From Patescibacteria group bacterium (GTDB taxonomy: Bacteria > Patescibacteriota > Patescibacteriia > UM-FILTER-42-10), in assembly GCA_041664365.1 (NCBI GenBank), contig JBAYKW010000002.1, forward strand, positions 11,858 through 75,857: DNA of 64,000 nucleotides, in the 5' to 3' direction. This document shows positions 1 to 50,367 of this stretch, one piece after another. Under the pieces are notes generated by a model that was not told the origin of the DNA, searched no databases, and saw nothing but the letters and a program-made list of their open reading frames with translations. The position numbers were made by a program, and so were the translations under genes. The first letter of the stretch is position 1; the number at the start of each line of letters is the position of its first letter.

Positions 1-391
1 CAGCTCTCGCCATTCCGGCCTGAGCACGGACTCACCTTCGTCGGAGGCAAAGCAAATGCCGACTTCGCAGTGGCTCGAACAAGTGATCGACAGCGTCGCG
101 CATACTGTCGCGGCGCGAGTGTTCGATCCGCACGACGTCCCGCTTCTGGGACCGATTGCCGTACAGATCCACCATGTGGACGGCAATATCGTCACCGGGA
201 CGATCTGCTCCGCCGAGGAGCACGCGCCGGACATCGAGACGACCGGATCGCGTTTCACGACCGATGCGGAGCTCAAAGAGATCCGCATGGCTGTGTACTT
301 CCTGGTGGTCCAGGGTGAATCCTTCGTCACCAAGACTCGCGATGGGTCCATCCTATGGACCATCGGTCTCCCCGTTCCTTCGGAAGACTAG
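1..391 (+). CDS. C-terminal part of a GC-rich hypothetical protein; the gene begins upstream of the window
   Basis: The frame is open from position 2 with no upstream stop and runs in-frame into the listed 56..391 ORF. The segment is about 60% GC, unlike the backbone, and is followed by a hairpin plus T-run. No recognisable motif. Confidence 0.35.
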   Translation, partial: SSRHSGLSTDSPSSEAKQMPTSQWLEQVIDSVAHTVAARVFDPHDVPLLGPIAVQIHHVDGNIVTGTICSAEEHAPDIETTGSRFTTDAELKEIRMAVYFLVVQGESFVTKTRDGSILWTIGLPVPSED

Positions 392-4477: not shown

Positions 4478-5836
4478 GTGATCATCAAGCGTTACGCACT
4501 GCTTCCGATGCGAGAACTTTGGCTCCGGGAAGAGAGCAAGTTCGAGCACTGGCTGGATGTTGAGCTAGCGGTTCTGCGCGCACGCGAACATTTGGGGATG
4601 GCACCTAAAGGTGCGTATATGAGCGTCCTCAAGCATGCTGCGTTCACTGTGGACAGGATCGCGGAGATCGAGGCGGAAGTGGATCACGACCTGATCGCTT
4701 TCGTCACCAACGTCCGCGAGTCGCTCGAAGCGGCCGGTATCGGCCATTTGTGTTCGGAAATCCATAAGGAGATTACGAGCTACGACGTGGAGGATCCGGC
4801 GCTGATTCTGATGCTCCGCAAGGCGGTCCATCTGGACATCAACGCGCTGAGATCGCTGGAACAGTCCTTACGGAGGAAGGCGCAGGAACACCAGTGGACC
4901 TGGATGATCATGCGCACGCACGGACAGTTCGCCGAACCTTCCACCTTCGGCCATCTTCTGCTGGTGTTTGCCGAAGAAATCCGGCGATGCATCGTCAAGC
5001 TCGAGACTCCGATGAACACTGATCTGTCCGAGGGGAAGATCTCCGGCGCGGTCGGCAGTTTCGCCGGCATTAGGCCAGCCGTGGAGCAGATTGCGCTGGA
5101 AGTGCTGGGTTTGATGCCTGCCAAGGCGGAAACCCAGATCCTACAGCGTGACCGTCACGCTGCGCTACTCTGCACGTTGGCAGTCTGCGGAGGAGTGATC
5201 GAGCAGATCGCAAAGACCTTCTGGGTGATGATGCGCAGCGAGGTGCGCGAACTCCGTGAACCGCGCAAGCCGAAGCAGAAGGGTTCCTCGGCGATGCCGG
5301 GCAAGCGCAATCCGATCCTGACGGAACGGCTCATGGGCATGTCCCGTCTGCTCCGTGCGGATGCAATGTGTGCGCTGGAGAACATCGCCACTTTCGAGGG
5401 ACGGGAAATCTCCCAGTCCAGTGTGGAACGCCACATCTTCGCGCGGTCAACGACGCTCGTTCACTACATGGCCATTAAGCTGGCCGGAATGGTGGACAGT
5501 CTCGAAGTTTTTCCGGAGCAGATGCTTCATAACCTGAAGGAGGAGTCACTCGGAGTGTGGGCCGGACAGCGGGTCCGTCATGCACTGGAGGAGGCGGGGA
5601 CTCACCACGAAGTGGCCTACCGCTACATTCAGGCGTGTTCGTTCCAGGCCGAGGCCGAACGGACGCATCTGCGAGACGTACTGCGCAGAACGTTGATTTG
5701 GGATGTTGTGGAAGACAGCGATGACGATCGTAGCGCCGAGGATCGGCTGGGTCGGAATGGTCTCAGGGCATGCTTCGACCACGAAGCCTATGCCACGGCC
5801 GGCATCGAACACATCTTCTCCCGCCAGACGGCGTAG
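4478..5836 (+). CDS. purB: adenylosuccinate lyase-like enzyme (fumarate-lyase superfamily, PurB-type)
   Basis: N-terminus VIIKRYALLPMRELWLREESKFEHWLDVELAVLRA parallels the PurB N-terminus (MIERYxxPEMxxIW..E.KFxxWL.VE). Fumarate-lyase signature GSSAMPGKRNP. GAGGAGG RBS before the GTG at 4478; the ATG at 4433 is an alternative start. About 60% GC. Confidence 0.65.
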   Translation: MIIKRYALLPMRELWLREESKFEHWLDVELAVLRAREHLGMAPKGAYMSVLKHAAFTVDRIAEIEAEVDHDLIAFVTNVRESLEAAGIGHLCSEIHKEITSYDVEDPALILMLRKAVHLDINALRSLEQSLRRKAQEHQWTWMIMRTHGQFAEPSTFGHLLLVFAEEIRRCIVKLETPMNTDLSEGKISGAVGSFAGIRPAVEQIALEVLGLMPAKAETQILQRDRHAALLCTLAVCGGVIEQIAKTFWVMMRSEVRELREPRKPKQKGSSAMPGKRNPILTERLMGMSRLLRADAMCALENIATFEGREISQSSVERHIFARSTTLVHYMAIKLAGMVDSLEVFPEQMLHNLKEESLGVWAGQRVRHALEEAGTHHEVAYRYIQACSFQAEAERTHLRDVLRRTLIWDVVEDSDDDRSAEDRLGRNGLRACFDHEAYATAGIEHIFSRQTA

Positions 5837-8060: not shown

Positions 8061-8127
8061 AATTTCCCTCCCCTCAGAGCCAAGGTACAAGGTTGCCAGT
8101 CTGTAGTATATTTATAATAGATATTTT

Positions 8128-8166
8128 GTCAACCCCGTTAGAGTCAATAACTCTAACGGGGTCAAT
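8128..8166. promoter_or_regulatory. palindromic intergenic element CCCCGTTAGAG-N7-CTCTAACGGGG (copy 1 of 3), upstream of the ispH promoter
   Basis: ttgtcaaccccgttagagtcaataactctaacggggtcaa. Near-identical copies at 36366-36403 and 49710-49745. A TTGTTT-17-TATAAT promoter follows at about 8178-8206. Confidence 0.6.
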
Positions 8167-8236
8167 ATGCGGAACCTTGTTTTTATAGGCATAATTGGTT
8201 ATAATACATAATGAAATAAAGGAATTTAGATACATT

Positions 8237-12354: not shown

Positions 12355-12375
12355 AATTTGTATTTGGAATTAATA

Positions 12376-12405
12376 TAGGCGAGAATGCGCATTCTCGCCT
12401 ATTTA
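12376..12405 (+). terminator. rho-independent terminator
   Basis: TAGGCGAGAATGCGCATTCTCGCCTA followed by TTT. Confidence 0.55.
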
Positions 12406-24366: not shown

Positions 24367-24406
24367 AGTTTTGAATATATCATCACATTAAATCTCTGTC
24401 AAATGG

Positions 24407-24436
24407 GGTAGCTTGGGTGACGTCACCCAAGCTACC
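24407..24436. promoter_or_regulatory. perfect 30-bp palindrome (15-bp arms) in the divergent intergenic region between the cop regulator and the purA-like gene
   Basis: GGTAGCTTGGGTGAC|GTCACCCAAGCTACC read directly. A TTGACT-17-TAAGAT promoter for the purA-like gene follows at about 24445-24473. Confidence 0.6.
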
Positions 24437-24517
24437 CACTGCGTTTGACTCAATTCAGATGTTTTTGTAAGATGATAGACCGTTTTAGTGAGGATTTTCG
24501 GACCAGGGGAGGGTTAT

Positions 24518-30317: not shown

Positions 30318-30329
30318 TTGAAAACATAA

Positions 30330-30527
30330 TATTAAACTGGAATAGTACCAGGGAACACCGGTGTAAATCCGGGGCAGTCCCGCTACTGTAATCTCAGGGC
30401 ATTTTTTTAGAAAATGTACTGGGAAAGTCAGAATACTGGTATATTCAAAATTAATTCTTTCTCCGCGGATAGGGAAAGAGGTAAAACTGCCGATTTTGCC
30501 TTCCTGTCCTAGGAAGGTTTTTTAATA
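30330..30527 (+). ncRNA. cobalamin (AdoCbl) riboswitch with a terminator-type expression platform
   Basis: cAGGGAAcaccGGTGtAAATCCggggcagtcccGCTACTGTAA matches the conserved core and B12-box of the cobalamin riboswitch consensus. Downstream hairpin GCCTTCCTGTCCTAGGAAGG plus TTTTTT lies 30 nt before the 30557 gene. Confidence 0.7.
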
Positions 30528-35905: not shown

Positions 35906-35912
35906 TTGATTT
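35888..35912. repeat. 25-bp direct repeat DR1 (the tRNA-Leu 5' end plus 7 nt of upstream flank)
   Basis: cagttccgccatcccggcttgattt. Identical to 36280-36304 except that the preceding base differs. Confidence 0.8.
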
Positions 35913-35913
35913 A

Positions 35914-36168
35914 CTATATGTTCGATAATGTGTTTCTGAGCAATGCTCTTAATGATTTCTTTCCTTTACTGGTTTTAAAGTAGCGTTCTCTTTTTTCAGC
36001 ATCTTCTTTATTATTGAACATTTCATAGAAAATAATCTTAACAGGTAATCTATGTTTAGTAAAAGTGCTTTTACCCTGCCTATGTTCTTTTAAACGTCTT
36101 TCAAGGTTATTAGTAATACCTGCATAAAGTTGCTTATTGGATAAAAGCAAAATATAAACAGAAAACAT
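35914..36168 (-). CDS. small GIY-YIG nuclease-domain protein (UPF0213/YhbQ-like, 84 aa)
   Basis: MFSVYILLLSNKQLYAGITNNLERRLKEHRQGKSTFTKHRLPVKIIFYEMFNNKEDAEKRERYFK carries the GIY-YIG core (VYIL...YAGIT.NLERRL.EH...E). AT-rich. Lies between the two 25-bp direct repeats. Confidence 0.65.
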   Translation of the reverse strand: MFSVYILLLSNKQLYAGITNNLERRLKEHRQGKSTFTKHRLPVKIIFYEMFNNKEDAEKRERYFKTSKGKKSLRALLRNTLSNI

Positions 36169-36279
36169 GTTGATATTGTATTACGGATTATTAAATAACA
36201 ATGATTAGTAAATAGTAATTTCCGCCATCTCGTACCACACAGGGTACGTGATAGCCATGAACCCTTTAGTGGTTCATGG

Positions 36280-36304
36280 CAGTTCCGCCATCCCGGCTTG
36301 ATTT
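36280..36304. repeat. 25-bp direct repeat DR2 (an orphan copy of the tRNA-Leu 5' end), preceded by a perfect hairpin GCCATGAACC-ctttagt-GGTTCATGGC
   Basis: ggttcatggCAGTTCCGCCATCCCGGCTTGATTTgaaaca read directly. Confidence 0.8.
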
Positions 36305-36365
36305 GAAACAGATATTACAAATATCTTTATCTCATACACTAGTCTAAATGGAATACAGCTTTCCT

Positions 36366-36403
36366 GTCAACCTCGTTAGAGAAAAACTCTCTAACGGGGT
36401 CAA
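36366..36403. promoter_or_regulatory. palindromic intergenic element (copy 2) upstream of the parA promoter
   Basis: gtcaacctcgttagagaaaaactctctaacggggtcaa. A TATAAT sits at about 36451 before parA. Confidence 0.55.
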
Positions 36404-36481
36404 CTGGTTTAATTGGTAGTGGCAATATCTGTAAAAATTGGTATAATATAAAAGTTATATAACAATAAAGAGTATCTTTTA

Positions 36482-41950: not shown

Positions 41951-42667
41951 TTATTTGATTTTTTTAGCCTTTTTTTCAAGCATAGCAATCGCATCTTCCA
42001 GCGTGACGGAATCGCTGGTAATTGTTTTAGGAACGGATACATTTATTTTACCGTTCGTAATATATGGTCCGAATTTTCCTTCTTTGATAATAATGTCATT
42101 TCGCTCCTCATCCTGTCCCAGATTGATCACCGCAGATTTACCGCCCGGCCTGAGCTTGTCACCCTTCAGTAGGTCTCTTGCCTCATCCAGCGTGATTTTT
42201 AATGGTGACAGGTTTGACGGGAGACTGCGGGTTTCTTTTCCCGCTTTGATGTAAGGTCCGAATTTTCCGTTGGATACTGTAATAATTTCACCATCATCAG
42301 CTGTGCCCAGAGTTTTCGGTAAAGTCAAAAGTTCCAGGGCCGTATCAAGATTTAATTTTTTAGCATCCATTCCCCTAAGTAGTGATGCTGTTTTTGGTTT
42401 TCTGCCCTTTTCTGAATCTCCCAGCTGAATATATGTGCCATAACGTCCTTCTTTCAGGTAAACCGGTTTTTTTGTTTCCGGATCATCACCGATTAACCGG
42501 TCCTCATGCATTTCTTGCTTAACTCCTTCTCGGACAATATTAATCGTATTTTTGCAGTCAGGATAACCGGTACATGCCAGAAACTCACCGTATCTGCCGG
42601 ATCTTAAAACCATCGTTTTCCCGCATCGGTCGCAAATTTCTTCAATTTTAGGCTCTGTATTATCCAT
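41951..42667 (-). CDS. topA: DNA topoisomerase I C-terminal segment (zinc ribbon plus Topo_C repeats), encoded as a separate ORF
   Basis: CDRCGKTMVLRSGRYGEFLACTGYPDC zinc ribbon followed by repeated KFGPYIKAGK / KFGPYITNGK TopA C-terminal repeats. Its ATG lies 1 nt after the stop of the upstream topA ORF and in a different frame. Confidence 0.6.
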   Translation of the reverse strand: MDNTEPKIEEICDRCGKTMVLRSGRYGEFLACTGYPDCKNTINIVREGVKQEMHEDRLIGDDPETKKPVYLKEGRYGTYIQLGDSEKGRKPKTASLLRGMDAKKLNLDTALELLTLPKTLGTADDGEIITVSNGKFGPYIKAGKETRSLPSNLSPLKITLDEARDLLKGDKLRPGGKSAVINLGQDEERNDIIIKEGKFGPYITNGKINVSVPKTITSDSVTLEDAIAMLEKKAKKIK

Positions 42668-42668
42668 G

Positions 42669-44870
42669 TTATTTTGTCAGTTTATGTGGGTTATGGTTCG
42701 GGCAGGTTTTATCACTGCACCTTTCCGGGATCGTTTTTGTTCCCTCCATCATTAGAGCACCGCATACTCCCGTTTCTCTGGTATATTCACAAAATCTTCC
42801 GGTCGGTTTGGCCTTGATGGCGTGTTTGCATTTCGGATAATTAGAACAGCTGTAAAATTTTCCGAACCGCCCTCTTTTTTCCACCATTTCACCGTCTTTG
42901 CATACAGTACATTTAACTCCAGTGGAATTCTGGCCGTTTTCACTGTTCTTGATGTATTTGCATTTCGGATAATTAGAACAGGAGATAAATAATCCGTACT
43001 TTCCTTCGCGTTCCACCTGTTTACCGTCCTTACATTCCGGACACGGATCACCGGTTTCTTTCGGACCCTGCATTTCCTTGCCGTCGATTGTCCTGCTACC
43101 ACTGCAATCGGGAAACTTGGCACAGCTTAAAAATTTTCCGGAGCGTCCGAGTTTGATTATCATTTCAGACTGGCATTTCGGGCACTTGATATCTTTATCC
43201 GCTTTACCGAGGTTGGTTATTTTTGCTATTTTATCTTTTGCTTTCACGTCTTTGGAAAAAGGTCCATAAAAATCTTTGAGGGTTTTTACATAATCTCTTT
43301 TACCCTGGGCGATTTCATCCAATTCATCTTCCATTTCAGCGGTAAATGAATCGCTAATATAATTTGCAAAATTGTCCTCCAGGAATTTGCTGACCACTTC
43401 GCCGGTATCGGTCGGTTTTAAAGCACGGCCTTCTTTTTCAACATATCCTCGGGAAATTATCGTATTAATAATTGACGCGTAAGTGCTCGGTCGTCCGATT
43501 CCTCGTTTTTCCAGTTCTTTAACCAGGCCGGCTTCAGTGTATCTGGGTAGCGGTTGTGTTTGCTTTTCGAGCGAATTTATTTGATCTAAAGTCAGGGGAT
43601 CTGCAACTTTCAATTTCGGCAGATCCACCTCTTCATTACGCGCTGTCGGATCAGCCAGAAGCCATCCGGGATTAATAATATGTGTTCCGTTGACAGCAAA
43701 ATCAGGTATACTGCCATTTGTGATATTTGCAGTGATCTTTGTTTTCAATAGCAATGCGTCAATCATTTGGCTCGCCATGGTTCTTTGCCAAATCAGCTGG
43801 TAAAGTTTTTTCTGATCATCAGTGGCGCCGGCAGTTTTTTTGGAAAAATCTGACGGTCTGATCGCTTCGTGCGCTTCCTGCGCATTTTTACTTTTGGTTT
43901 TGAATACTCTGACCTGGACTAATTTATCACCATACTCTTTAGTTATGGTCCTCGTGATGTTGCCGAGTGATTCTTTACTCAGATTGGTACTGTCGGTACG
44001 CATGTAGGTGATGTATCCAGCTTCATAAAGCCTCTGAGCAGTACTCATCGTACGCGATGGAGTAAAACCAAAACGTGAACTGGCGGTTTGTTGCAGGGTA
44101 GAAGTTGTAAAAGGTGCGCGCGGACTCCGCTTTGCTTCATTTTCTTTCATTTCAATAACCTGCCAGGCGCCTTTTTTGCCTTGTTCAATAATACTGTCAA
44201 CTTCTTTGATGTCTTTTGGTTCGACAGAACAATTGAATTGTATTTTAATATTTTCTTTAGTTACCAAATCAGCAGTTATCTGCCAATAGGTCTCCGGCAC
44301 AAATTTCTGGATCAGTCTCTCTCGCTCAACCAAAATCCGCAAGGCGGGGGATTGAACTCTCCCTGCTGACAAACCATATCTAACCTTTTTCCAGATTAAT
44401 CCGCTCAGATCATAACCAACCAGCCTGTCTAGTACCCTGCGTGCTTCCTGTGCAATACGCAGATTCTGATCGATCTCCCTCGGATTAGCGATCGCTTCGT
44501 CTATTGCTGACTGGGTAATTTCGTGAAATACAATTCGTTTGATTTTTTTACTATTTCCGTCACTATTCAGTACCTCGGCTATATGCCAGGCAATAGCCTC
44601 TCCTTCACGGTCAGGGTCAGTTGCCAGCAAAATCTCATCCGACACTTTCGCAATCTTTCGCAATTCCGCCACAATTACTCTTTTATCTGCCGAAATCTCA
44701 TACCTTGGCACAAATCCCGCCTCAATATCGATTGCCTGCTTATTACTTTTCGGAATATCGCGAATATGACCGACACTGGCCTTAACGGTGTATTCTGAAT
44801 GATCACCTAAAAGTTTAGTAACTGTTTTTGATTTCGTAGGTGACTCAACGATGACTAGTTTTTTTGTCAT
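42669..44870 (-). CDS. topA: DNA topoisomerase I (Toprim plus catalytic core plus four zinc ribbons)
   Basis: Toprim block KLVIVESPTKSKT...ASVGHIRDIP, type IA core, and four CxxC...CxxC ribbons (CPKCQSE...CAKFPDC, CPECKDG...CSNYPKC, CTVCKDG...CSNYPKC, ...). Confidence 0.85.
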   Translation of the reverse strand: MTKKLVIVESPTKSKTVTKLLGDHSEYTVKASVGHIRDIPKSNKQAIDIEAGFVPRYEISADKRVIVAELRKIAKVSDEILLATDPDREGEAIAWHIAEVLNSDGNSKKIKRIVFHEITQSAIDEAIANPREIDQNLRIAQEARRVLDRLVGYDLSGLIWKKVRYGLSAGRVQSPALRILVERERLIQKFVPETYWQITADLVTKENIKIQFNCSVEPKDIKEVDSIIEQGKKGAWQVIEMKENEAKRSPRAPFTTSTLQQTASSRFGFTPSRTMSTAQRLYEAGYITYMRTDSTNLSKESLGNITRTITKEYGDKLVQVRVFKTKSKNAQEAHEAIRPSDFSKKTAGATDDQKKLYQLIWQRTMASQMIDALLLKTKITANITNGSIPDFAVNGTHIINPGWLLADPTARNEEVDLPKLKVADPLTLDQINSLEKQTQPLPRYTEAGLVKELEKRGIGRPSTYASIINTIISRGYVEKEGRALKPTDTGEVVSKFLEDNFANYISDSFTAEMEDELDEIAQGKRDYVKTLKDFYGPFSKDVKAKDKIAKITNLGKADKDIKCPKCQSEMIIKLGRSGKFLSCAKFPDCSGSRTIDGKEMQGPKETGDPCPECKDGKQVEREGKYGLFISCSNYPKCKYIKNSENGQNSTGVKCTVCKDGEMVEKRGRFGKFYSCSNYPKCKHAIKAKPTGRFCEYTRETGVCGALMMEGTKTIPERCSDKTCPNHNPHKLTK

Positions 44871-49647: not shown

Positions 49648-49709
49648 TTTTGTTAAATTTCGAGGCTAAAATTAGCCAAATATTATACTGTTTGAGTTTA
49701 TAAATCTTG

Positions 49710-49745
49710 ATCCCGTTAGAGGATTTTCTCTAATGGGGTTGACAA
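49710..49745. promoter_or_regulatory. palindromic intergenic element (copy 3), followed by TTGACA
   Basis: tcccgttagaggattttctctaatggggTTGACAaaaaaacaaattatgcTAACAT. The palindrome abuts a possible promoter facing the ncRNA/tRNA region. Confidence 0.5.
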
Positions 49746-49939
49746 AAAAACAAATTATGCTAACATTATACTTCACATTTCAAGAAACAGCCAGCATATT
49801 TTACAAATAAATATCAAAGTTACTGTTTACCAAGCTGCTTGCAAGTGGCGAAAATTTAAACAACCCCTCCTTAGTTTTTATTAGTAGCTATAAAGATAGG
49901 AACTATTTCTACATGGAATATTTCTATCGCTTGTAAGTG

Positions 49940-50200
49940 GCCTAGTGAACAGTAGATGTAGTGCCCAGCGTGCTATTTATAAGTCGGTTAAGAGTATTGT
50001 ATCCTCCTTAACAATACCCTTTGCCATCAGACTTATAGATAGCACCCTGGGTATTATGACATATTGGGTCCGTTGGCATCTCCGATGCCAAACTGAAGAA
50101 GCGATGGGGCTCTCCGCAAGGAAGCCCGTTTCCGAAAGGAATCCCTTGGCGAGCATCGACCAATCAGTTTCTCGCTCACGCGAGACGGGCCCACCTAAGT
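49940..50200 (+). ncRNA. candidate structured RNA (GC-rich, [11 protein letters not shown] leader or ncRNA) upstream of the tRNA cluster; identity unresolved
   Basis: Perfect hairpin TTGGCATC-tccg-GATGCCAA, and an imperfect long hairpin with an apical GNRA loop (CGCAAGGAAGCCCG-TTCC-GAAA-GGAA-TCCCTTGGCG). The overlapping ORF 49945..50247 runs into a tRNA and is not credible as coding. Confidence 0.3.
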
Positions 50201-50292: not shown

Positions 50293-50367
50293 GTCCCGTT
50301 AGCTTAATGGCAGAGCAGCTGACATCTCAATCAGCCGATCGGGGTTCGAGTCCTCGACGGGGCACCA
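50293..50367 (+). tRNA. tRNA-like gene with an 8-nt anticodon loop (CATCTCAA); anticodon unresolved (CTC or TCT possible)
   Basis: GTCCCGT-TA-GCTT.AATGGCA.GAGC-A-GCTGA.CATCTCAA.TCAGC-CGAT-CGGGG.TTCGAGT.CCTCG-ACGGGGC-A-CCA. The cloverleaf is otherwise good. Confidence 0.5.

Follow-up and report, generated by a model that had tools for sequence, protein, structure and literature searches.

Introduction

What are the three palindromes with shared arms that lie beside promoters in a 64,000-nucleotide stretch of contig JBAYKW010000002.1 (positions 11,858 to 75,857), here called the window, a housekeeping stretch of a metagenome-assembled genome (MAG) from the Patescibacteria (candidate phyla radiation, CPR)? 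The IspH and DprA encoded in the window are 100% identical to NCBI proteins listed as 'Patescibacteria group bacterium'. An earlier note on this DNA had proposed either the operator of a transcription factor or a structural repeat of the repetitive extragenic palindrome (REP) type, placed upstream of ispH, of parA and of a tRNA cluster. We conclude, with a probability of roughly 0.82, that the copies are insertions of a very small, non-autonomous mobile palindrome that resembles MITEs (miniature transposable elements with inverted repeats) and REPs. The comparisons described below show insertions of a non-coding palindrome with inverted-repeat ends of 11–13 bp, bounded by a 4-bp duplication at TTKA|C and differing in presence among relatives. 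They also show that in this lineage the insertions fall in −35 hexamers, which the duplication restores.

Results

Three copies of a short hairpin in the window

Direct reading of the sequence and a shuffle control bore out the three copies. The hairpin occurs three times in the window, whereas 0.00 occurrences of its exact pattern were expected from 100 shuffles. The arm 10-mer with at most one mismatch was found 10 times compared to 4.1 expected, and every perfect match to it falls in copies 1–3. A relaxed scan of the window and a further 7.6 kb of the same contig yielded no fourth copy.

Copy 1 with its flanking repeats covers positions 8129-8165 and reads TCAA-CCCCGTTAGAG-TCAATAA-CTCTAACGGGG-TCAA, with a perfect stem of 13 bp; the palindrome alone, as read from the sequence, spans 29 bp (8133..8161). 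Copy 2 (36367-36403; palindrome alone 36371..36399, 29 bp) reads TCAA-CCTCGTTAGAG-AAAAACT-CTCTAACGGGG-TCAA and contains one arm mismatch. Copy 3 (49707-49742; palindrome alone 49711..49738, 28 bp) lies in the opposite orientation, reads TTGA-TCCCGTTAGAG-GATTTT-CTCTAATGGGG-TTGA and carries two arm changes. The short element is a unit of 28–29 bp devoid of coding capacity, with the terminal inverted repeats CCCCGTTAGAG / CTCTAACGGGG (11–13 bp, common to this short form and to a long form described below) enclosing a few variable bases. The arm spacing varies, being 6 or 7 nt in the window and 5–9 nt elsewhere. The palindrome originally described thus holds for the arms, while its (G)TCAA...TCAA flank turned out to be a direct repeat outside the palindrome. 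As single-stranded DNA, copies 1, 2 and 3 have calculated folding energies of −14.8, −11.1 and −7.4 kcal/mol, corresponding to z = −9.3, −6.7 and −3.8 relative to shuffled controls.

Filled and empty sites in syntenic relatives

To follow the three sites in other genomes, syntenic contigs of relatives were taken via their IspH homologues (81–84% identity) and DprA homologues (72–75% identity). At site 2, the relatives L131 and L133 are empty and read ...gcttttctg TCAA ctacct.../atactt..., with a single TCAA where the window has one on the left (36367..36370) and one on the right (36400..36403) of copy 2, and with flanks that align base for base with the window. The same site in L132 is filled by the variant CCCTGTTAGAG-AGTTTCT-CTCTAACAGGG. 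At site 3, copy 3 is missing from L131, L132 and L133, all of which show an uninterrupted c-TTGA-CA promoter (TTGACA-N17-TAACAT) and no filled relative was observed. Their single TTGA corresponds to the left duplication copy at 49707..49710 and to a right copy formed by the first four bases of the TTGACA at 49739. At site 1, L127-L130 lack the element and have a single TCAA at the orthologous position of the left (8129..8132) and right (8162..8165) repeats, and one relative (L125/L126) is filled, with a different loop. The empty sites fit exactly at sites 2 and 3, whereas the fit at site 1 is ambiguous. In two sister lineages, NODE_39 and k141_469602, all three copies are missing (0/3) from the same 42 kb, and the promoter blocks are conserved on either side irrespective of the presence of the element.

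The filled relatives also allowed a comparison of the copies themselves. Between the window and L125 at site 1, 21/22 arm positions are identical, compared to 3/7 in the loop, and the right flank is largely different. Between the window and L132 at site 2, 19/22 arm positions are identical, including a compensatory change from C-G to T-A, and again 3/7 in the loop. This arm conservation may reflect independent hits at a hot spot or selection on the hairpin. In the latter case the copies would have arrived as mobile DNA and been co-opted later, with a hairpin or cruciform selected, for example, as a supercoil-sensitive spacer or a protein-binding site. The arm identities with their compensatory pair are in line with such a history, as are the ParB identities, which suggest that the window and L132 are sister lineages, and the location of all three window copies between divergent promoters. 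However, the same promoters in close relatives do not have the element, unpaired arm mutations are present in copies 2 and 3, and independent insertion into a highly specific target predicts the same pattern, with CCCTG...CAGGG variants occurring elsewhere (L065). We therefore consider co-option improbable.

The flanking 4-bp repeat as a mark of insertion

Further copies were collected by scanning the pattern CGTTAGAG-N4-9-CTCTAAYGGGG over one genome per species (185,579 species, 596 Gb), which gave at least 120 loci. For 86 symmetric copies among the matches listed, the four bases before CCCC were compared with the four after GGGG. A perfect 4-bp direct repeat was present in 40 of these 86 (47%), and three of the four bases agreed in 14 more, whereas shuffled pairing of the flanks (1000 trials) gave on average 4.7 and at most 12 perfect repeats. 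For repeat lengths of 3, 5 and 6 there was little or no excess. Among copies with identical arms the repeat varies, including TTTA, TAAA, TTGA, TCAA, TCAG, CTCG, CTAA, TGGA, TATA, CGGA and others. A nested case is provided by L053, where a short copy with a TCAG duplication sits within a long-form element whose family consensus has a single TCAG at this point. Such a variable 4-bp repeat is the signature of a target-site duplication, and it is present at all three window copies.

At uniform composition we estimate about 50 chance matches in 596 Gb. An extra CCC completing the palindrome was found in 78 of the 116 flanked copies among the matches listed, and most of the others share conserved upstream sequence. 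Based on these two properties we take the matches to represent a real family.

Target preference and the promoters at the three sites

Short copies followed by TTGA continue as TTGACA in 12 of 15 cases among the matches listed, and 11 of those have TAnnnT 16–18 nt downstream; as background in the window, TTGACA accounts for 11 of 83 intergenic TTGA sites. For the long form, an unbiased set showed TTTA on both sides in 29/45 copies and TAAA on both sides in 0. The base at +1 after the right repeat is C in 37/45, compared to only 16/45 with G at −1 before the left repeat. From this 29-to-0 orientation and the C at +1 it follows that the target is asymmetric, TTKA|C(W), and is entered in one orientation by the asymmetric long form. 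In other phyla we detected no enrichment of −10 elements downstream of TTTAC, and the link to promoters is therefore specific to hosts whose −35 hexamer matches the target.

All three window copies are located between divergent transcription units. Copy 1 separates a gene for a 108-residue protein (minus strand) from ispH (plus). Towards the former faces a promoter-like TTGACA-16-TATACT (8105..8132, minus; 11/12 matches), whose TTGACA at 8132-8127 takes its TTGA from the left duplication copy and is also kept in relatives lacking copy 1. The likely ispH promoter, TTGTTT-17-TATAAT (8177..8205, plus), begins 11 nt past the element. It was read by eye, as the consensus scan did not call it (only 3/6 matches in the −35), and its CTTGTTT and TATAAT blocks are conserved in filled and empty relatives alike. 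Copy 2 lies between tRNA-Leu (minus) and parA-parB (plus). A promoter-like TTGACA-18-TAGACT (36341..36370, minus) faces tRNA-Leu, with the TTGA of its TTGACA (36370-36365) again being the left duplication copy. L131-L133 have retained this site, with tRNA-Leu a short distance downstream of it. On the other side, 16 nt past the element, a parA promoter-like GTGGCA-17-(TG)TATAAT (36419..36447, plus) forms a block conserved in filled and empty relatives. Copy 3 is bordered by mfd (minus) and, on the plus strand, by a conserved non-coding stretch followed by the tRNA cluster, towards which a promoter-like TTGACA-16-TAACAT is directed (49739..49766, plus), with the right duplication copy as its TTGA.

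The association with promoters noticed earlier is thus real, and promoter scans support it at all three sites. A TTGACA abutting the hairpin had been reported for copy 3, where it is confirmed; in fact each of the three copies adjoins one, on the minus strand for copies 1 and 2. We attribute the association to the choice of target site (TTGA|CA) and not to regulation. For the palindrome to be the operator of a dimeric transcription factor, with the adjacent genes forming a regulon, would accord with conserved 11-bp arms beside promoters and between divergent genes, and with arms that at sites 1 and 2 are better kept in relatives than loop and flanks. This assignment of the earlier note is nevertheless very improbable. 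The copies are insertions with target duplications that are missing from the orthologous promoters of relatives, which retain −35 and −10 without the element; the arms are variably spaced and the inner bases pair as a stem. Likewise, the neighbouring genes (ispH, parA, mfd, tRNAs and a hypothetical gene) share no function, and the family appears under many phylum labels without shared gene context. No candidate regulator is encoded nearby, and among the window genes neither a cognate regulator nor a transposase was found. Placement at promoters is also not exclusive, as in other genomes the element occurs inside open reading frames (ORFs) and nested in repeats.

Two further observations concern the surroundings of copies 2 and 3. 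Between the tRNA-Leu promoter and tRNA-Leu(CAA), an insertion of ~392 bp (35906-36306, minus) is missing from L131-L133. It is bounded by the 25-nt direct repeat AAATCAAGCCGGGATGGCGGAACTG, in which 7 nt of upstream sequence are followed by the tRNA's first 18 nt, and carries an ORF for an 84-residue GIY-YIG nuclease (36168-35914; Pfam E = 2.4e-16). This resembles a small homing or mobile cassette by which the tRNA target is restored. A non-coding stretch of ~430 nt (49770-50200) separates the copy-3 promoter from the tRNA cluster; it is well conserved in relatives (e.g. AAGCTGCTTGCAAGTGGCGAA...CAACCCCTCCTTAG) and matches no Rfam family, making it a candidate lineage-specific non-coding RNA. 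The tRNA called by ARAGORN at 50293-50367 (Rfam 52.6 bits) has an irregular anticodon loop with a 4-nt 'tctc'; in L131 a tRNA at 5666-5738 has a 2-nt 'ct'.

Distribution and gene context of the family

Labels among the matches listed comprise Omnitrophota, many Patescibacteria lineages, Planctomycetota, Nitrospirota, Desulfobacterota ('Deltaproteobacteria'), Elusimicrobia, WOR-3, Balneolaceae and a few others, and the Omnitrophota matches include the complete genome of Ca. Velamenicoccus archaeovorus. Two MAGs among these matches are labelled as archaea. We treat this and a 'Streptomycetaceae' label with caution, since the binning of MAGs can err. An identical 19-nt core recurs under many phylum-level labels without a common gene context. 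A metagenome scan with the long-form left end likewise gave at least 120 loci, and the viral collection contained three isolated copies. A full-text literature search for the arm sequences returned unrelated primer matches only, and keyword searches for an element of this kind in these phyla gave no result. We thus found no earlier description of it in the searchable literature.

Where copies lie in frame within ORFs, they were observed in giant ORFs of Omnitrophota and in a pilin leader, MTQKGFTPLEMKSLTG|FTLIEL, where the G|FT cleavage site is rebuilt by the duplication together with the terminal GGG. Pilin leaders contain short and long forms in frame at L028 6622-6650, at L146 2824 and in L112, L120, L147 and L191, with the element end and duplication re-encoding ...LTG|FT. 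For long copies in general, element plus 4 gives an insertion length divisible by three in 99/153. An origin from, or targeting of, pilin genes was considered and rejected: TTTA+CCCCGTTAGAG agrees with the FTLIE-coding TTTACCCTGATTGAG at 12/15 positions, yet only 5/136 long copies lie in pilin leaders.

A long form and the maintenance of pairing

The long form measures 110–113 nt and has the architecture TTTA-CCCCGTTAGAG-AAA-(hairpin 1)-(hairpin 2)-CGTTAGAG-loop-CTCTAACGGGG-TTTA, with ends as in the short form. Its three hairpins are backed by compensatory changes, with 11 pairs showing double changes. In total 67 cells with double changes were counted compared to 24.8 in shuffles (0/500 reached the observed value), and slid controls were far lower. 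In the short form, at least two extra inner pairs were present in 50/78 copies among the matches listed versus 8.3 in shuffles, with 72 different inner sequences and a modal loop of 3 nt. The short-form sequence equals the long form minus the segment between its two direct CGTTAGAG copies, and a deletion between these copies is a plausible origin of the short form. The orientation of the long form relative to neighbouring genes showed no bias (84 to 77).

A stable hairpin and a covarying long form would be expected of an element acting as RNA, be it a terminator, an attenuator or the hairpin of a small RNA. This explanation is even harder to sustain than an operator. The window hairpins lie upstream of both flanking −35 boxes and so are not transcribed from those promoters. 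G.T and A.C mismatches are equally frequent in the long form, meaning that neither strand is preferred. No Rfam family covers the short or the long form, as no match was obtained at the gathering threshold for the window and 12 loci, nor at E ≤ 10 for one long-form copy. An intrinsic terminator in particular was rejected, given hairpins between divergent promoters, without a T-tract, and scans that gave no terminator-like site.

Other site types were discarded as well. Integron attC sites have the order 5'-RYYYAAC ... GTTRRRY-3' and form cassette arrays; here the boxes come in inverted order (GTTAGAG ... CTCTAAC) on either strand, and each copy stands alone. A Xer/dif-like site and a CRISPR repeat were ruled out on anatomy.

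Search for a putative mobilising enzyme

Several results weigh against the interpretation as insertions of a mobile element. Neither an autonomous parent with the same ends nor a partner transposase was found in 240 pattern-selected loci, in ~1.9 Mb of fetched loci or by BLAST against plasmids. A 29-bp duplex is too short for a classical DDE complex to join both ends. Stems are paired up to a loop of ~3 nt, compensatory changes maintain the long form, and the latter inserts in one orientation relative to TTTA|C; together, size, maintained pairing and fixed orientation suggest a single-strand mechanism. We know, however, of no single-strand mechanism that produces duplications. The perfect repeat is confined to 47% of copies even though the search demanded perfect arms. 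At site 1, the empty alleles of L127-L130 read TCAA CCCC(GT)..., like the element's own end, and may represent a preferred target or the remnant of a deletion. Finally, the arms at sites 1 and 2 are far better kept between relatives than loop and flanks.

Solo ends among the 120 genome loci listed are degenerate copies or nested elements, and the metagenome matches to the long-form left end comprise only elements of 50–200 nt together with truncated or degenerate ones. The dense loci L119 and L053 contain housekeeping genes only. A GIY-YIG nuclease was rejected as partner: one adjoins copy 2, but with only two other matches in 1.9 Mb it is not enriched. In a replication-strand test, the GC skew of the window tracks gene orientation.

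The suggestion of a single-strand route leads to a specific alternative, namely that the family is an element of the REP type, or of the palindrome-associated transposable element (PATE) type, which a Y1 HUH transposase (RAYT or the TnpA of IS200/IS605) mobilises in single-stranded form. Its flanking repeat would then consist of the left target and an identical right cleavage site borne by the element. Pairing kept by compensatory changes is compatible with this view, as is the single orientation of the long form 3' of TTTA(C), with 29 copies to 0 and the skew between C at +1 and G at −1. Furthermore, TTKAC resembles the targets of IS608 (TTAC) and ISDra2 (TTGAT), about half of the copies show an imperfect repeat, and Y1_Tnp genes occur in 4 of the 120 loci listed. 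However, this motif lies within 500 bp of none of these four genes; two of them are flanked by other hairpins. The flanking repeat also varies among copies with the same arms, without a visible guide sequence for each variant, and the 84-to-77 balance against neighbouring genes reveals no orientation bias. Moreover, the element lacks a GTAG head, and it has both terminal inverted repeats and duplications, which IS200/IS605 elements lack (PMC2817692). We accordingly regard this alternative as unlikely, albeit the most serious of those considered.

The IS200-like Y1 transposase genes at L038 5584-6406 and L118 5507-6257 each have perfect hairpins of their own on their flanks, unrelated to the element (AACATCCTAATTGAGGTT... 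and TTGGGTTTCGTAAATCC...). Found in MAGs of Yanofskybacteria and Kaiserbacteria, they resemble typical RAYT/REP-style units.

For a mobile palindrome, the enzyme acting in trans would be a DDE-type transposase in the first place, at somewhat less than even odds. This type is favoured by the inverted-repeat ends, the sharp 4-bp duplication and the variable sequence of the duplication. A single-strand or hairpin (HUH-like) route is possible but less probable, being favoured by the 29-bp size, pairing up to the loop, the structured long form, its fixed orientation and the fact that, despite perfect arms, half of the copies have imperfect repeats. Something else is slightly less probable again.

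Other features of the window and nearby loci

Two further perfect palindromes were noted in the window. The first, of 32 bp (GGGTAGCTTGGGTGAC|GTCACCCAAGCTACCC, 24406-24437), is found 40 nt upstream of a divergent gene for an ArsR-type/YHS regulator, the first in a heavy-metal P-type ATPase operon, and is a far better operator candidate than the hairpins reported originally. The second, of 28 bp (ATAGGCGAGAATGC|GCATTCTCGCCTAT, 12375-12402), is located between a FecR-domain gene and fur and may be either an operator of the Fur type or a terminator. An AdoCbl riboswitch (57 bits; 30324-30487) precedes a DUF4430 gene and follows genes for NrdR, a class II ribonucleotide reductase and a corrinoid adenosyltransferase.

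Topoisomerase I is encoded by two adjacent ORFs (41951-44870, minus), one of 733 residues with Toprim, Topoisom_bac and zinc ribbons, the other of 238 residues with a zinc ribbon and C-terminal repeats. The same split in three relatives argues that it is genuine and does not stem from faulty sequencing. On the same contig, immediately before the first position of the window (L257 7665 = window 1), L257 6937-7652 contains two tandem, mutually similar cysteine-rich ORFs of 108 residues (CSVCG...CLLCGG). The 111-residue ORF at window positions 56-391 and the 108-residue gene adjacent to copy 1 are unrelated to them.

Discussion

How might such insertions persist next to promoters? The element inserts at TTKA|C and leaves TTKA on both sides. 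TTGAC(A) serves as the sigma-70-type −35 hexamer in this Patescibacteria lineage, and the element therefore lands inside promoters. The duplication remakes a full TTGACA on one side and leaves TCAA on the other, thereby keeping both divergent promoters and spacing them 32–33 bp further apart. A protein encoded elsewhere would recognise the conserved arms and cut with a 4-bp stagger. The copies probably have little effect on the host and would be tolerated because the −35 is restored.

Tentatively, the family may represent an undescribed kind of transposon, whose mobile unit is approximately one DNA hairpin of 26–31 nt and whose enzyme is widely distributed. Such a transposon would combine pairing-dependent, orientation-specific (HUH-like) insertion with a true 4-bp duplication and would home to TTKAC, the −35 in Patescibacteria. 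With its inverted-repeat ends, its 4-bp duplication and a length of ~29 bp, the element is near the lower size bound for a transposon. This small size fits a classical transpososome poorly, and the enzyme could reveal an unusual mechanism. The sharing of 11-bp ends under many phylum labels points to either wide horizontal spread or a highly conserved partner protein in poorly known lineages. As a practical consequence, promoter-side palindromes in genomes of CPR bacteria and Omnitrophota can represent mobile DNA and not operators, and inferring regulons from such motifs would mislead. Rebuilding of the −35 illustrates a route by which a parasite can persist in genomes of ~89% coding density, and the copies could be used as natural strain markers.

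Compared with known systems, the element shares with the bacterial MITEs Correia/NEMIS, RUP and MITEAba12 its non-coding and dispersed nature, perfect terminal inverted repeats, a duplication of fixed length, a presence that varies between relatives, and locations in promoters or in frame in genes. MITEs are, however, larger, at roughly 50–500 bp, and usually confined to one species or genus. The present element consists of essentially two inverted repeats and a loop within 28–29 bp, and we know of no MITE this small. It further differs by the lack of a parent insertion sequence in our searches, by the same 11-bp ends under many phylum labels and by the fixed orientation of its long form.

Other small mobile palindromes offer partial parallels. 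Rickettsia palindromic elements (RPEs) are 100–150 bp in size, restricted to Rickettsia and located in frame in protein genes. They thus resemble the element as palindromic mobile repeats tolerated within genes and differ in being larger and Rickettsia-restricted; to our knowledge, neither a defined 4-bp duplication nor −35 targeting has been described for them. The GC clusters of yeast mitochondria are non-coding mobile palindromes of 30–50 bp flanked by short duplicated target sequences. Given their different compartment and sequence, this likeness is one of analogy only.

With IS200/IS605 elements and PATEs, the family has in common hairpin ends, insertion beside a T-rich tetra- or pentanucleotide (TTKAC here) and the fixed orientation of the long form. 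Terminal inverted repeats and duplications are both missing from IS200/IS605 (PMC2817692), whereas the present family possesses both, and its flanking repeat varies between copies. REPs and REPINs, which are mobilised by RAYTs, are similar in being palindromes of ~20–35 nt, mostly intergenic and present in many copies per genome, with pairing kept as the sequence varies and a presumed trans-acting enzyme. REPs have a conserved 5' GT[AG]G head, are species-specific and often flank the RAYT gene (PMC2817692). Here, the head is replaced by variable direct repeats (e.g. TTTA, TTGA, CTCG), a 4-bp duplication is present, the family crosses phyla, and no RAYT is linked to it. The REP-like repeat proposed earlier is therefore right as to a short dispersed palindrome but fails on the GTAG head, the linked RAYT gene and species specificity. 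Taken together, the element behaves like a MITE or a REP and fits neither definition fully.

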